This document shows positions 60,406-64,000 of a DNA stretch of 64,000 nt, piece after piece. Source of the DNA: a virus (lineage: Duplodnaviria; Heunggongvirae; Uroviricota; Caudoviricetes); IMG/VR virus record IMGVR_UViG_2907227753_000005; one strand, written 5' to 3'. The notes under the pieces were generated by a model. It worked only from the letters and a program-made list of their open reading frames with translations. It was not told the DNA's origin and did not search any database. Position 1 is the first letter of the stretch; the number at the start of each line of letters is the position of its first letter. Both the position numbers and the translations under genes were made by a program.

Positions 60406-61233
60406 ATGATTAAACTTAATGGCGCAACCCTCAACTTCAAGGTCTTCCCTAATGGGGAGACTTTGGTTGACGGGGATCAAATTTTAGACCTCTTAGCAGA
60501 CAGAAACTATGACGCTGAAGTCATCTTCAAATATGAAAACGACAGTGACCTCGTGAAGCTCCTGTTCGTCAAGTCCCACCTGGATAGGTACTTCTGTAAG
60601 AGAAGCATTCTGAAGATCGCATACATGCCATACAGCCGCATGGACAGGTCTGAAGGGTCATCGGTCTTTACACTGAAGTACGTCGCCAAGATGATTAACG
60701 ACATGAACTTCGACTACGTTAATGTGATCGAGCCGCACTCTGATGTCACGTTGGCACTACTTGATCGTTGTGAAGCTACTTACCCAACCACCGCCCTCCT
60801 GCATGAGGTCATGATGGAAGTAGACTTCGACATCGAAAAGGATTATCTGTTCTTCCCCGACCAAGGTGCTCAAAAGCGTTACGGAAAGAACTTCACTAAG
60901 TTCAAGCAACTGGTTGGGTTTAAGGAACGCAACTTTGCTACTGGGGAGATCGACAAGCTTCAACTGGTCGGCTCTGTCGAGAGTAAAGGGTTCAAAGCGG
61001 TCATTGTGGATGACCTCTGCTCTTACGGAAACACATTCATCAGAAGCTCCAATGCTCTGCGTGAAGTAGGCGCGGCTGAGGTTCATCTCGTAGTGACTCA
61101 TGCTGAGGACTCTATCTTCAAAGGAAATGTGTTCACCTCTGAGCTGATTGACCATGTATACACCACGAACACTCTGCTCACCGAAGTACTTGAAGCATGG
61201 GAGAGCAAGATTAGCGTGAAGGAGCTGATCTAA
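60406..61233 (+). CDS. Ribose-phosphate pyrophosphokinase (Prs)-like enzyme (275 aa); a candidate ADP-ribose pyrophosphokinase (Adps-type) rather than a canonical PRPP synthetase
   Basis: N-domain ...KIAYMPYSRMDRSE matches the Prs (V)IPYFGYARQDRK loop. C-domain PRTase-type binding loop AVIVDDLCSYGNT. It is shorter than the roughly 315-aa housekeeping Prs. RBS aaagggtga. Confidence 0.65.
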   Translation: MIKLNGATLNFKVFPNGETLVDGDQILDLLADRNYDAEVIFKYENDSDLVKLLFVKSHLDRYFCKRSILKIAYMPYSRMDRSEGSSVFTLKYVAKMINDMNFDYVNVIEPHSDVTLALLDRCEATYPTTALLHEVMMEVDFDIEKDYLFFPDQGAQKRYGKNFTKFKQLVGFKERNFATGEIDKLQLVGSVESKGFKAVIVDDLCSYGNTFIRSSNALREVGAAEVHLVVTHAEDSIFKGNVFTSELIDHVYTTNTLLTEVLEAWESKISVKELI

Positions 61234-61676
61234 TGGAGAAGCTACCCCTGATTGACACAAACGGAACTGACCCCTTCCTCCACCCCACCAACGCCATAAA
61301 CAGGCTTGTGAATGAGTGGAGAGAGCACGGGAAGATCATCATTGCCTACGACTTCGATGACACCGTGTACGACTACCACAAGCGGGGCAGTAGCTACGAC
61401 CAAGTAATCAGTCTTCTGCAACGCTGTGAAGCCTACGGTGCATATTTCATCGTCTCCACTTGTTGTAGTGAGGACAAGTACGACTTCATTAAGGACTACT
61501 TGGAGAGTAACGGCATCCCTTATGACGCGATCAACGAGAACGCACCGTTTGTACCCTTCACTGGTCGGAAGATTTACTGCAACATACTACTTGATGACCG
61601 CGCAGGACTTCTTACTTCTTACGTAACTCTTGACAGTGCCTTAAAAATACTTGAATCGGAGCGTGTAATCCTATGA
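61233..61676 (+). CDS. HAD-superfamily phosphatase-like protein (147 aa), translationally coupled between the Prs-like and NAMPT-like genes
   Basis: Motif I IIIAYDFDDTV (hhhhDxDxT/V), an S/T motif FIVST, and a motif IV-like LLDDRAG. TAATG overlap upstream and ATGA overlap downstream. Confidence 0.5.
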   Translation: MEKLPLIDTNGTDPFLHPTNAINRLVNEWREHGKIIIAYDFDDTVYDYHKRGSSYDQVISLLQRCEAYGAYFIVSTCCSEDKYDFIKDYLESNGIPYDAINENAPFVPFTGRKIYCNILLDDRAGLLTSYVTLDSALKILESERVIL

Positions 61677-63169
61677 CAACTACTATTACTACTAACTTTC
61701 CTCCTGAACTTATGTGTGATTTCTATAAACTGTCCCACCCTGAGCAGTATCCTGAAGGTACAGAGTACGTATCCTCCACATGGACTCCTCGCGGTAGCCG
61801 CCTGGAAGGTGTGAATGAGGTAATGGTGTTCGGTGTGCAAGGCTTCGTGAAGGATTTCTTGATCGACTACTTCAACACATACTTCTTCAATCTTCCTAAG
61901 GACGTAGTGATCGCTCAATACAAACGATTCATCCGTCACACGATGGGAATTGCTGAACCTAACGCATCCCGTATTGCGGCTCTACATGACCTGGGCTACC
62001 TACCACTGAAGATCAAGGCTCTGAAAGAAGGTACTCTTGCCCCTACCCGCGTCCCAGTAGTTACTGTGGAGAACACACTTCCTGCATTCTATTGGCTGAC
62101 CAACTCCATTGAGACGGTTATGTCCTGTGAGGTATGGATGCCTTCCACAAGCGCAACAATCGCGTTCCAGTACCTTGAGATTCTGACTCGGTATGCCGAG
62201 ATGACAGGCAGTGACGAGGGAGCTATCCAGTTCCAGGGACACGACTTCTCCATGAGAGGTATGGCAGGTCGTCACGCGGCGGCTTCGAGTGGTGCAGGTC
62301 ACCTGCTCTCCTTCAGCGGAACGGACACATGCCCTGCTATTGGATACCTTGAGAAGTATTACAATGCAGACATCGAGAATGAACTGGTTGGTACCTCCAT
62401 CCCCGCCACTGAACACGCTGTAATGTGTGCCAACGGTCAGGACGAGAGAGAAGTACTATTGCGACTGATGACTGAAGTCTACCCTACTGGATTCTTCTCG
62501 GCTGTAATGGACACATGGGACTTCTGGCACGTAATCGAAAAAGTGCTCCCTTCCTTGAAGAAAGAGATTATGGGACGAGACGGTAGAGTAGTTTGTCGTC
62601 CTGACTCGGGAGACCCTGTTCTGATTCTCTGCGGTGATCCTAATGCTGAGGAGGAGATCGTTCGCAAGGGATTGATCGAAGCACTGTGGGATACCTTCGG
62701 TGGTACTGTAACTGATCGTGGTTACAAGCAACTCGATACACACATCGGTGCTATCTATGGCGACTCCATCACTCTTGATCGTTGCGAGGAGATTTGCAAG
62801 CGACTGATGGACAAGGGATTCGCTTCGACAAATGTGGTGTTCGGTATCGGATCGTTCACGTACCAATACAACACCCGAGACACATTCATGTTCGCGATGA
62901 AAGCGACTCATGCAGTAATCAACGGTGAGGAAAGACTTCTCTACAAAGACCCTAAGACAGACAGTGGTATGAAGAAGTCGCAGAGAGGGTTGGTTGCTGT
63001 TGTCGAAGACATTAATGGTCGTCTGACTTATAAGGACGGTATGTACAGAGCTGACTACGAGGAGATCGCTCACCTCGACCAGTTAGAAGTACTGTTCCTT
63101 GACGGAAAGTTGGTTCGTGACGAGACCCTAGGCGAGATTCGCGCAAGAGTTCGTAAACAACTGAAGTAG
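61673..63169 (+). CDS. nadV: Nicotinamide phosphoribosyltransferase family enzyme (NAMPT/NadV-like, 498 aa)
   Basis: Multiple NAMPT signature blocks align with the human and bacterial enzymes: CDFYKLSHPEQYP (DSYKVTHYKQYP), VTVENTLPAFYWLTNSIET (FTVENTDPECYWLTNWIET), HDFSMRG (HDFGYRG), FSGTDT (FKGTDT), PATEHAV (PAAEHST), RPDSGDP (RPDSGNP). Confidence 0.85.
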   Translation: MTTTITTNFPPELMCDFYKLSHPEQYPEGTEYVSSTWTPRGSRLEGVNEVMVFGVQGFVKDFLIDYFNTYFFNLPKDVVIAQYKRFIRHTMGIAEPNASRIAALHDLGYLPLKIKALKEGTLAPTRVPVVTVENTLPAFYWLTNSIETVMSCEVWMPSTSATIAFQYLEILTRYAEMTGSDEGAIQFQGHDFSMRGMAGRHAAASSGAGHLLSFSGTDTCPAIGYLEKYYNADIENELVGTSIPATEHAVMCANGQDEREVLLRLMTEVYPTGFFSAVMDTWDFWHVIEKVLPSLKKEIMGRDGRVVCRPDSGDPVLILCGDPNAEEEIVRKGLIEALWDTFGGTVTDRGYKQLDTHIGAIYGDSITLDRCEEICKRLMDKGFASTNVVFGIGSFTYQYNTRDTFMFAMKATHAVINGEERLLYKDPKTDSGMKKSQRGLVAVVEDINGRLTYKDGMYRADYEEIAHLDQLEVLFLDGKLVRDETLGEIRARVRKQLK

Positions 63170-63379
63170 GTAAATCCTGTAGGAAGTGGGACACCCCACT
63201 TCCTTTTTCTATTGGACAAGTGTATACTGTCTTTGAATAAACTCCCTAAGGGGGTAAGAGCAGTGTTATCTGAGGAGCCAATAGATAAGATTTTTTAAGA
63301 TGATGTCTACGAGAAAAGACTCGCGGGGAGAACAGCAAATGTCTCACGCGGGGCACGGGCAAAAAGGTACCCTCATGAA

Positions 63380-64000
63380 ATGATGACAGGCAAGGAAAAG
63401 CGAGACTATACTAAATCAGGAAAGGTTCAGGTGACTAACATGTACGAAAACATTCTGCCTTACGAGGAGTTTAAGAAGATCGAACCTGCGGAGAAGCGTG
63501 CAGAAGTTCTTCAGAGTTGGAGAGACAAATTTAACAACGCTCAGATCGAACGTACTTGGGGGATGAAAACTCATCAGTACTATAAGGTTGTCAAAGAACA
63601 CGGACTGAAGACAGCTACCCCAGGCAACGCAAAAGCTAAACAACAATCCATAGGTGCAGGAAGCAATGCTAACCAACGCACCAATAAAAATAATGCAGTC
63701 GTACTTAACAGTGAAGGTTTGGGGATTAGTTATGCGGGAGTCTTCAACATTGCTGATCTCGAAACCAAGTTCACTAAGATCGTGGGCTTCCTGAAGGATG
63801 AGGGCGGTGCGTTCTCGGTAAGCATCTCAGTCTTTGAGGACATTGCCCCTGAGCAAGCGAATGAAGGAATCAAGATCAACTACAACGGAACGTTTAGCGG
63901 TGAGGAGCTGTTAGCTCGTTTCGACAAGATCAGCGGCTTCCTGAAGGACGAGACAGGCAAGTTCAATGTCCGCATCCTGGTTCAAGAAGAAGCGGCTTAA
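63380..64000 (+). CDS. Hypothetical protein (206 aa) with an internal C-terminal repeat; the TAA stop at 63998-64000 coincides with the window end
   Basis: Repeats FTKIVGFLKDEGGAFSVSISVFEDIAPEQ and FDKISGFLKDETGKFNVRILVQEEAA. Confidence 0.45.
   Translation: MMTGKEKRDYTKSGKVQVTNMYENILPYEEFKKIEPAEKRAEVLQSWRDKFNNAQIERTWGMKTHQYYKVVKEHGLKTATPGNAKAKQQSIGAGSNANQRTNKNNAVVLNSEGLGISYAGVFNIADLETKFTKIVGFLKDEGGAFSVSISVFEDIAPEQANEGIKINYNGTFSGEELLARFDKISGFLKDETGKFNVRILVQEEAA

Follow-up and report, generated by a model that had tools for sequence, protein, structure and literature searches.

A predicted HAD-fold phosphatase gene within a NARP1-type operon of a Paenibacillus prophage

What might a small predicted hydrolase be doing between the two enzymes of a phage pathway for remaking NAD+? 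The question is raised by three genes on the + strand of a 64,000-nucleotide stretch of viral DNA (IMG/VR record IMGVR_UViG_2907227753_000005), the whole of which is called the window here. These are adps (60406-61233; 275 aa), predicted to encode a Prs-like ADP-ribose pyrophosphokinase, the first NARP1 enzyme; a gene for a predicted capless (C0) phosphatase of the HAD superfamily, a putative accessory (61233-61676; 147 aa); and namat (61673-63169; 498 aa), predicted to encode a NAMPT-family nicotinamide ADP-ribose transferase, the second NARP1 enzyme. Only the 147-aa gene separates adps from namat, and all lie on one strand. The three open reading frames lie where the earlier note had placed them, and they are real genes and no chance reading frames, because they have profile matches to phrog_619, phrog_1238, phrog_448 and PRK09198. 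Both junctions also read as that note had described them in proposing translation as a unit, with TAATG joining the adps stop (61231-61233) to the HAD start (61233-61235) by a 1-nt overlap, and ATGA joining the namat start (61673-61675) to the HAD stop (61674-61676) by a 4-nt overlap. A Shine-Dalgarno motif, AAGGAG, can be read directly inside the 3' end of adps (61219-61224, + strand), 8 nt before the HAD start, and supports coupled translation of the HAD gene. An intrinsic terminator (63181-63204, + strand; 10-bp stem with 6 G-C pairs, 4-nt loop and T-run) stands 12 nt past the namat stop. With its 1-nt and 4-nt overlaps, internal Shine-Dalgarno motif and single terminator, adps-HAD-namat is, as read from the sequence, one translationally coupled unit. 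No convincing sigma-70 promoter was found immediately 5' of adps, and the unit may therefore be transcribed by read-through from upstream genes.

The element had been treated as a phage genome, and this needs correcting, as several Paenibacillus genomes carry it as a fixed prophage; the 8 kb past the window end carry a lysis cassette, followed by host genes. A megablast search of the operon region against 50,697 phage records gave no match, so that protein-level searches were required.

With respect to the first gene, we observe that its product shares 55% and 54% identity with the validated Adps enzymes of SPbetaL1 and FADO, respectively, 33% with the Adps of ICP1, whose structure has been solved, and 26% with E. 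coli Prs. It matches phrog_619 at 1e-72, stays under every NCBIfam Prs cut-off (89 versus 113 bits) and has a top PDB Prs match of only 58 bits. The earlier note had described a shortened Prs homolog, and the product, at 275 aa, indeed falls 40 aa short of the 315 aa of E. coli Prs; in the alignment it is without the Prs N-terminal extension and without the C-terminal alpha11-alpha12 insert of about 17 aa, like all Adps compared. Loss of this C-terminal alpha11-alpha12 module is an Adps signature, and the catalytic Lys185 and the acceptor residues R87, H121, D161, D212 and D213 (ICP1 numbering) have been reported for the enzyme (PMC13586617). Gene 1 has K173 at the position of ICP1 K185, where E. 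coli Prs has Asp, and keeps R78, H111, D152, D202 and D203 at the positions of the five acceptor residues, while ICP1 PP-loop D216 and F92 are both Ser, exactly like in the validated SPbetaL1 Adps. Set against both clades, gene 1 is by its sequence a member of the Adps clade and not a cellular Prs.

The third gene had been called a clear NAMPT/NadV-family enzyme, in agreement with its matches to phrog_448 (1e-196) and NCBIfam PRK09198 (8e-160). Between the NadV and Namat clades it falls with Namat, scoring 720 bits to 9W5W/9W5X (SPbetaL1 Namat) versus about 190 bits to true NAMPTs, with 63% identity to the crystallised SPbetaL1 Namat and 64% to FADO Namat. In the SPbetaL1 enzyme, R40, F392 and Y396 form the adenine selectivity clamp, with R306 in the core (PMC12774641). 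The corresponding residues of gene 3 are R43, F395, Y399 and R309, and the gene is identified from them as a Namat with all adenine-clamp residues intact. True NAMPTs that adjoin members of the same HAD family read M-R-A-K at the clamp and core positions and are paired with a full-length Prs.

The operon core is thus very probably NARP1, in line with the earlier proposal of this module over a NadV/NatV route. Adps would use ATP to pyrophosphorylate ADP-ribose (ADPR) to ADPR-PP, and Namat would form NAD+ and PPi from ADPR-PP and nicotinamide, a pathway by which phages would remake NAD+ out of the products of immune NADases. Both core enzymes, their order, their orientation and their defining residues are as in NARP1 of SPbetaL1, FADO and Bas63 (Osterman et al., bioRxiv 10.1101/2024.02.11.579819), and, as with SPbetaL1, the genome is that of a large temperate phage, with the operon at its right end. 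It differs from SPbetaL1, the nearest validated operon, in that adps and namat overlap directly there, with no gene between them, and from the NARP1 operons of Bacillus phages in its host genus, Paenibacillus. In NARP2 (NadV plus NMNAT/Nudix), an NMNAT is encoded with the NAMPT. The earlier note had seen no NMN adenylyltransferase in or near the operon, and we find no such gene within the 64-kb window and the 8 kb downstream: neither the (H/T)xGH motif of NMNAT nor a Nudix motif was seen in any of the six frames of the window, the 65 remaining window genes matched only 12 Pfam families, with no NMNAT (CTP_transf_like), NUDIX, Macro or NADAR among them, and the 8 kb downstream hold no NMNAT or Nudix gene. 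Ordinary NadV/Prs nicotinamide salvage from PRPP to NMN, finished by a host NMNAT or a distant one, perhaps in the prophage part left of the window, would fit the database names (ribose-phosphate pyrophosphokinase and nicotinamide phosphoribosyltransferase) and the NMN-forming activity that Namat partly keeps, but it is highly improbable given the clustering of gene 1 with Adps, the ADPR-PP selectivity clamp of gene 3, which the HAD-adjacent true NAMPTs with their full-length Prs replace by M-R-A-K, and the absence of NMNAT from 64 kb plus 8 kb.

What, then, is the protein encoded between them? It matches phrog_1238 at 5e-28, whereas a Pfam scan gave no match and a sequence search against PDB chains noise only. 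HAD motif I (DxDxT) reads D40-F-D42-D-T44, with the Asp+2 general acid present, and 104 homologues show little or no variation at T76, K113 and D121-D122; a confident structure model has a capless HAD fold with a Rossmannoid core. From the four conserved catalytic motifs, the Asp+2 acid and the confident fold, the protein is predicted to be an active phosphatase, and we infer a Mg2+-dependent HAD-fold phosphomonoesterase, in keeping with its earlier description as a HAD-type phosphatase with DxDxT. Comparison of the modeled fold establishes the superfamily and gives no substrate; the nearest structure is BT_0820 (PDB 2obb), itself uncharacterised, and nucleotidases, PNKP 3'-phosphatases and acid phosphatases reach similar scores. 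Membership of the BT_0820 family (NCBIfam NF046079) was rejected at 19.4 bits, far under the cut-off of 165, with 20% identity to BT_0820. The PHROG/RefSeq label "phosphoheptose isomerase" was likewise rejected, because structures of phosphoheptose isomerases match this HAD fold at noise level only. A further structural neighbour, AfhF (9iqw), is a small phage HAD that acts on pentose-1,5-bisphosphate.

Across dereplicated HAD-family clusters, Adps and Namat genes occur within 2.5 kb on the same strand in 63 of 99, a fraction biased upward because the loci were selected by similarity to the query family; in a context-blind sample, two of four HAD homologues were linked to NARP1 genes. Where both genes are present in the locus (68 clusters), the order is mostly Adps-HAD-Namat (52), with Adps-Namat-HAD and HAD-Adps-Namat found in 8 clusters each. 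The linked clusters cover Bacillota phages and prophages as well as Bacteroidota chromosomes, the latter with the arrangement nrtR-adps-HAD-namat, and in Mucilaginibacter a family member is part of an nrtR-nadM-nadV-prs operon. Furthermore, the HAD family is fused to NAD synthase in three representative clusters and also to NDT-like domains, and other HAD-containing operons, some headed by NrtR, add genes for NADAR, ADP-ribosylglycohydrolase, Macro and Tpt1/KptA proteins (in L146 the order is Adps-HAD-Tpt1-Namat). In our view the HAD enzyme likely acts together with NAD+/ADPR recycling, and the wide recurrence of adps-HAD-namat in phages and bacteria points to a missing step in that recycling. 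About one quarter of the clusters have no NARP1 genes nearby and heterogeneous neighbourhoods; no residues separate linked from unlinked members, which share the same consensus at every conserved position. A set of 38 Listeria-phage HADs, at first taken as NARP1-unlinked family members, was set aside, since the matches are partial, at about 44 bits, and the proteins are therefore distant paralogues.

An accessory phosphatase between Adps and Namat is already known as NARP1-AP, and what is new here is the HAD fold. In NARP1-AP of Vibrio phage Gary (Adps-Adpp-Namat), the Macro-domain protein Adpp converts ADPR-1''P to ADPR, and the system overcomes aRES (Osterman et al., bioRxiv 10.64898/2026.01.28.702374). 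In the related Vibrio phage Dax (L175; Adps-Macro-Namat), we observe that the Macro start overlaps the Adps stop, so that a small phosphatase gene in this position and with this overlap is common to both arrangements. The proposed logic would be analogous too, phosphorylated ADPR being returned to ADPR, but Adpp is a Poa1p-like Macro-domain enzyme, whereas the protein here is of HAD fold with no detectable similarity to the Dax Macro protein. The literature searched gives no description of a HAD version of the NARP1 accessory phosphatase and none linking NARP1 to a HAD-fold phage enzyme; to that extent the earlier remark, by which no described NARP1 version includes the HAD protein, stands.

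HAD and Macro genes occur together in three operons (L128, L159 and L181), which excludes a mutually exclusive, one-for-one displacement; the HAD is therefore no simple substitute for the Macro phosphatase, and the roles of the two may differ. Macro genes were found in 2 of 29 HAD operons, with no clear difference from the published 15%. The Macro proteins of HAD operons and the Dax Adpp belong to different subfamilies, scoring 160 and 31 bits, respectively, on PF01661, with no mutual BLAST match. A further extension of NARP1 has been described in mycobacteriophage DyoEdafos, where RyDEP turns 2'/3' cADPR into ADPR (bioRxiv 10.64898/2026.05.28.727677); it likewise places within the operon an accessory enzyme that feeds in ADPR from an NAD+-derived molecule, but the fold of RyDEP is that of a RyR domain, and its activity is that of a glycosidase and not of a phosphatase.

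Among phage responses to NAD+-depleting immunity NARP1 is a major one, with the known weak point that only plain ADP-ribose is accepted, and the one described fix, the Macro-domain Adpp, led straight to aRES, a new defence chemistry. Our tentative explanation of the whole locus is a NARP1 pathway with a coupled HAD phosphatase that would broaden its input, with ADPR-1''(2'')-phosphate as the likeliest substrate. The enzyme would strip the phosphate from a phosphorylated ADP-ribose unusable by Adps, leaving plain ADPR, and would be a non-homologous counterpart of Adpp. The substrate is a best guess that we hold with some doubt, namely ADP-ribose-1''(2'')-phosphate or a related phospho-ADPR. Sources of such a compound could be NAD+ phosphorolysis of the RES type (aRES, RES toxins), the Tpt1/KptA reaction by way of Appr>p, and labile ADPR-PP when it decays spontaneously through ADPR-cyclic-phosphate. 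The Tpt1 product is ADPR-1'',2''-cyclic phosphate, and ADPR-cP has been detected in vivo as a decay product of ADPR-PP.

Several side observations touch this phospho-ADPR model. For it, the nadM-nadV-prs operon with a HAD gene has an analogous labile intermediate in PRPP, Adpp occupies the same slot, the structural neighbour AfhF takes a pentose-1,5-bisphosphate as substrate, and the neighbours (NADAR, ADP-ribosylglycohydrolase, Macro, Tpt1/KptA and NrtR) are centred on ADPR. Against it, the fold points to no substrate, aRES has been validated from one bacterial family, an ADPR-phosphate substrate leaves the NAD synthase and NDT-like fusions unexplained, HAD and Macro genes share operons, and the NARP1-unlinked quarter of the clusters has the same conserved consensus.

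Among the alternatives, an inorganic pyrophosphatase, which would pull reversible, PPi-releasing NAD+-forming steps forward (here that of Namat), is unlikely. PPi is the one product common to all partners of the family (Namat, true NadV, NadM and the fused NAD synthase), and HAD-fold pyrophosphatases are known in BT2127 and PpaX; these, however, carry a cap domain, whereas the present protein is capless, an architecture usually tied to bulky substrates. A highly active Ppa is present in cells anyway, and the NDT-like fusions and ADPR-processing neighbours would be left unexplained. A 2'-phosphatase for 2'-phospho-ADP-ribose, NADP(H) or both, which would feed an NADP-derived pool to ADPR or NAD+, is just as unlikely, since its likeness to PNKP is no greater than to other HAD enzymes and the gain would be modest, the NADP pool being small compared with NAD. 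A 5'-nucleotidase with NMN, NaMN, AMP or a nucleotide linked to defence (m6dAMP, for example) as substrate is improbable. The NMN/NaMN nucleotidase had been offered in the earlier note and is disfavoured because the family is present in the nrtR-nadM-nadV-prs operon, where NMN is an intermediate and its hydrolysis would be futile; the NAD synthase fusion raises the same objection. It is also quite improbable that the gene rides along as a passenger, either a moron or a gene of general phage nucleotide metabolism, with no part in NAD+ reconstitution. The quarter of clusters in heterogeneous surroundings would suit this reading, as would the validated SPbetaL1 and FADO operons, which function without a HAD gene, but the linkage, without exception on one strand, comes in three gene orders, in two phyla and in viruses and chromosomes alike. 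Moreover, translation of the gene is coupled in this operon, and the family is fused to NAD-metabolic domains and belongs to NrtR-headed operons.

The phospho-ADPR reading would possibly make the HAD proteins a second class of accessory phosphatase in NARP1, not homologous to the first, that salvages ADPR from a phosphorylated NAD+ breakdown product. This class could extend through Bacillota phages and NrtR-controlled Bacteroidota operons, acting perhaps on ADPR-1''P (from RES, Tpt1 or ADPR-PP decay) or on the product of an unrecognised defence. aRES is validated from Enterobacteriaceae only; if such a second class exists, the HAD distribution would mark non-canonical NAD+ cleavage outside this family and bring to light a repair or salvage reaction that NAD+ recycling in cells shares with that in viruses. 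If the HAD enzyme is a convergent solution, it extends the arms race to Gram-positive and Bacteroidota hosts; if it is not, another NAD+-derived metabolite needs recycling. The hypothesis is directly testable because the enzyme is small and easily purified, and the candidate substrates can be obtained or prepared.

The earlier reading of the core as NAD+ reconstitution is borne out by each sequence feature tested, but the HAD step is probably not purely counter-defence. It is probably one of general ADPR/NAD+ recycling, because bacterial chromosomes commonly carry the module under control of NrtR, a repressor that senses ADPR. Known NrtR-regulated prs-nadV operons have two genes and no phosphatase, with ADPR as the NrtR inducer (Rodionov et al. 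2008, PMC2330246), and the presence of the module in bacterial NrtR regulons bears on a question dating from 2008, why some bacteria keep an ADPR-induced "prs-nadV" operon. The Bacteroidota loci resemble these operons in having nrtR directly 5' of the Adps-like and Namat-like genes, whereas the prophage copy in the window is without NrtR.

The three genes lie on the plus strand at 60406-61233 (gene 1, 275 aa), 61233-61676 (gene 2, 147 aa), and 61673-63169 (gene 3, 498 aa), with coordinates, lengths, and junctions exactly as the earlier note had claimed: the first junction is TAATG, the final A of the stop doubling as the A of the next ATG, and the second is ATGA, a 4-nt overlap. A canonical AAGGAG is found 8 nt 5' of the gene 2 start, and a terminator with a 10-bp stem and a T-run (63181-63204) starts 12 nt after the gene 3 stop. 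There is no convincing sigma-70 promoter directly upstream of the three-gene unit, which may therefore be transcribed by read-through from upstream genes. Strong family matches (gene 1 to phrog_619 at 1e-72, gene 2 to phrog_1238 at 5e-28, gene 3 to phrog_448 at 1e-196 and NCBIfam PRK09198 at 8e-160) indicate that all three ORFs are real genes.

With respect to the core enzymes, gene 3 scores 720 bits against PDB 9W5W/9W5X, the Namat of phage SPbetaL1 (PMC12774641), versus about 190 bits against genuine NAMPTs. It is 63% identical overall to SPbetaL1 Namat and keeps all the residues that define this enzyme, namely R306 of the Nampt-like core and the adenine "selectivity clamp" of R40 on a loop and F392 and Y396 on a helix (PMC12774641), as R309, R43, F395, and Y399; in true NAMPTs encoded near Mucilaginibacter members of the gene 2 HAD family, the same four positions read M-R-A-K. 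Judged by its sequence, gene 3 is a Namat. NARP1 has been validated experimentally in the phages SPbetaL1 and FADO, and gene 1 shares 55% and 54% identity with their respective Adps proteins, against 33% with that of ICP1 and 26% with E. coli Prs. It falls under every curated Prs cut-off (89 versus 113 bits). In the solved structure of ICP1 Adps, Lys185 is the key catalytic residue, and loss of the alpha11-alpha12 C-terminal module is the family signature (PMC13586617). Aligned with Adps and Prs sequences (alignment A3), gene 1 lacks both the alpha11-alpha12 insert and the Prs N-terminal extension, and its K173 occupies the Lys185 position, an Asp in E. coli Prs. R78, H111, D152, D202, and D203 are retained, and at the two positions where gene 1 differs from ICP1, F92 and the PP-loop D216 (both Ser), it is the same as the validated SPbetaL1 enzyme. 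These features identify gene 1 as a predicted Adps.

A six-frame scan of the window found no (H/T)xGH or Nudix-box motif, and neither a CTP_transf_like nor a NUDIX domain was recognised by Pfam in the window or over the next 8 kb downstream. Given this lack of an NMNAT and the Namat and Adps identities, the operon is NARP1 and not NadV/NatV salvage (NARP2), so that the reading of the NAMPT-like and Prs-like pair as NARP1, and the earlier claim that no NMN adenylyltransferase lies in or near the operon, both hold. The core is thus a further member of NARP1, which is itself already known. In the nearest validated operon, that of SPbetaL1, also at the right end of its genome, adps and namat overlap directly with nothing between them, and FADO NARP1 has no third gene either, unlike the operon in the window.

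Gene 2 has no Pfam match and reaches 19 bits against the NCBIfam BT0820 HAD family (cut-off 165). Across an alignment of 104 homologues, D40, D42, K113, D121, and D122 never vary, and conservation at T44 and T76 is 90% or more; together these are HAD motifs I to IV, including the Asp+2 general acid that is typical of phosphatases. R24 and N101 likewise never vary, and E28 and D47 reach 90% or more. The AlphaFold model, which is of high confidence (pLDDT 93.5, pTM 0.86), has a capless core with flanking helices at the N and C termini, and gene 2 is predicted to encode a catalytically active HAD phosphatase whose subfamily has no name. The label "phosphoheptose isomerase" carried by PHROG 1238 and many RefSeq phage records (e.g., NC_031070.1 and NC_018857.1) was rejected, as the fold is HAD and isomerase structures match at noise level; it is probably a propagated error.

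Two other accessories of NARP1 have been described. The first, the Macro-domain protein Adpp, turns the ADPR-1''-phosphate produced by the RES-domain defence aRES into ADPR; it accompanies the operon in 15% of NARP1 phages (NARP1-AP), with the order Adps-Adpp-Namat in Vibrio phage Gary (bioRxiv 10.64898/2026.01.28.702374). We observe the same Adps-Macro-Namat architecture in Dax, a related phage in which the start of the Macro gene and the stop of adps overlap. The second is the RyDEP glycosidase, encoded within a NARP1 locus, which converts cADPR signals to ADPR (bioRxiv 10.64898/2026.05.28.727677). In the literature linking NARP1 to haloacid enzymes or phosphatases, we saw no HAD-fold accessory described for phages, in line with the earlier note's view that the HAD protein belongs to no described version; the one HAD protein named there, MisB, belongs to the Metis system of the host. 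The three-gene form is an architectural counterpart of NARP1-AP that differs by another, uncharacterised phosphatase fold. Adps-HAD-Namat is a new NARP1 version, widespread in phages and bacterial NrtR regulons, and is worth an experiment, the assays being simple.

We fetched 160 loci with HAD-family members (80 viral contigs and 80 genomes), located Adps-like and Namat-like genes by tblastn, and dereplicated the loci at 90% identity into 99 clusters. Both NARP1 genes lie within 2.5 kb on the same strand in 63 of the 99 clusters and within 10 kb in 5 further ones, with one of the two in 7 and neither in 24, and dereplication at 70% identity leaves 50 clusters, 28 of them linked, all of these fractions being upper estimates since the loci were picked for their resemblance to the query family. 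In a small sample of four more distant homologues, drawn blind to context, 2 were linked. Among the 68 linked clusters, the order is Adps-HAD-Namat in 52, Adps-Namat-HAD in 8 (e.g., Bacillus Wphvirus phages), and HAD-Adps-Namat in 8 (Cohnella and Paenibacillus genomes), and the aromatic Namat clamp is kept in 61. At E <= 1e-30, the whole HAD family comprises 197 representative clusters. An Adps-like gene is present in 1474 records of the cultured-phage collection, whereas strong HAD matches there amount essentially to 57 Bacillus phage records; the HAD version thus accounts for a minority of NARP1, of the order of a few percent. In Bacillus phage Skywalker (L004:5878-7596) and related Tsamsavirus, Namat is about 570 aa long and its alignment to the window Namat is split in two, suggesting an internal insertion; a HAD-like gene there is about 1.3 kb downstream and not adjacent.

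Of the 29 linked loci taken as representatives, 11 have NrtR as the flanking gene, about 1 kb 5' of HAD (L158, L169, L174, L171, L131, L147, L163, L153, L159, L161, and L181), and all 10 NrtR genes checked individually are directly upstream on the same strand. The arrangement nrtR-adps-HAD-namat occurs in Saprospiraceae, Cytophagales, Flavobacterium, and related MAGs (Bacteroidota), and the Adps-like proteins of the nrtR loci score 138-162 bits against ICP1 Adps versus 84-96 bits against E. coli Prs. NrtR is a Nudix-related repressor whose inducer is ADPR (PMC2330246), and its place at the head of NARP1-like operons fits a puzzle from 2008, namely why NrtR controls a dedicated "prs-nadV" pair. 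In or beside HAD operons we further observe genes for ADP-ribosylglycohydrolase (6), NDT-like PF15891 (at least 3), NADAR, Macro, NAD synthase, isochorismatase, and Tpt1/KptA (one). HAD-containing NARP1 operons often have extra inserts. At eight sites within them (L143:9268-11694, L153:10424-11377, L167:3693-4235, L172:7384-7941, L146:10610-11152, L083:10419-10952, L016:10404-10823, and L135:4316-4771), the inserted genes encode NADAR, ADP-ribosylglycohydrolase, Tpt1/KptA, nicotinamidase-like isochorismatase, and PF15891 nucleoside-deoxyribosyltransferase-like proteins, and look like a toolbox of "feeder" enzymes freeing ADPR or nicotinamide from conjugates. HAD and Macro occur together in three operons (L128, L159, and L181), and HAD is fused to NDT-like/DUF1937 domains in four cases (P0255, P0204, P0231, and P0118), more often than to NAD synthase (three representative clusters: P0160, P0213, and P0223). 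The Mucilaginibacter operon reads nrtR-nadM(NMNAT/Nudix)-nadV-prs-?-HAD, with a NAMPT without the clamp and a full-length Prs; in M. gossypiicola (L122:5136-10764, with L133, L136, and L145 similar), it comprises nrtR, NadM-like, NAMPT, Prs, a 139-aa protein, HAD, and a 127-aa protein, the 139-aa and 127-aa products having no PDB sequence match. On a 149-kb viral contig, an intein/LAGLIDADG ORF (L016:7197-9122) lies directly 5' of an Adps-HAD-NDT-Namat operon.

We infer that the phosphatase acts within the pathway, and from this context a substrate may be proposed. The NARP1 and nadM-nadV-prs contexts share the recycling of ADPR and nicotinamide via a labile 1-pyrophosphoryl-ribose intermediate (ADPR-PP or PRPP), and ADPR-PP decays to ADPR-cyclic-phosphate in vivo (Osterman et al. 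2024, bioRxiv 10.1101/2024.02.11.579819). For Adps, ADPR-1''(2'')-phosphate is a dead end; it arises by RES-type phosphorolysis, from Tpt1 via Appr>p, and through ADPR-PP decay. The Tpt1 route via Appr>p is established biochemistry, and one operon reads Adps-HAD-Tpt1-Namat. A phosphatase restoring ADPR from this compound would be useful to phages and cells alike and natural in the slot that Adpp takes in NARP1-AP. Based on the dead end, its several sources, and the Adpp slot, we tentatively favour an ADPR-phosphate phosphatase, but the HAD/Macro co-occurrence and the NadE and NDT fusions have no explanation under this reading, which therefore has a modest probability. One rival is a pyrophosphatase, PPi being the product common to Namat, NadV, NadM, and NadE, and another is a 2'-phosphatase on 2'-phospho-ADPR or NADP. 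HAD could also be a passenger gene: the neighbours of unlinked HAD genes, with no NAD genes near, are heterogeneous (Metallophos, YqeY, sigma factors, and 2H/Acb1-like phosphoesterases). Linked and unlinked members have an identical consensus at every conserved position. A 5'-nucleotidase is a further candidate, and the NMN nucleotidase that the earlier note had offered as an option is disfavoured by the nadM-nadV context.

In RefSeq, the 147-aa HAD protein has an exact match labelled "MULTISPECIES ... unclassified Paenibacillus", on contigs of up to 1.1 Mb. In those genomes, the operon is followed 3' by a 206-aa ORF, amidase and holin genes on the opposite strand, and the host scpB, scpA, and riboflavin operon. 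In the fetched locus L006 (coordinate + 51232 = window coordinate), amidase_2 and holin on the minus strand lie past the window end, then host DUF2953, scpB, scpA, and the riboflavin operon. Because host genes follow the operon in these contigs, the window represents the right-hand portion of a prophage that several Paenibacillus assemblies carry. The placement is SPbetaL1-like, with hardly any further cargo between the NARP1 operon and the lysis genes and attachment boundary. A Pfam scan of the other 65 window genes recognised just 12 families, among them SNF2 helicase, thymidine kinase, M23 peptidase, SLH, glycosyltransferases, Metallophos, phage cement protein, and a few more. The 206-aa ORF past the terminator (63380-64000), which has no family assignment, includes a pair of similar stretches, each about 60 aa long ("...KIVGFLKDEGGAFSVSISVFED..." and "...KISGFLKDETGKFNVRILVQEE..."), and its counterpart in a related Paenibacillus contig (L009) is 245 aa long.
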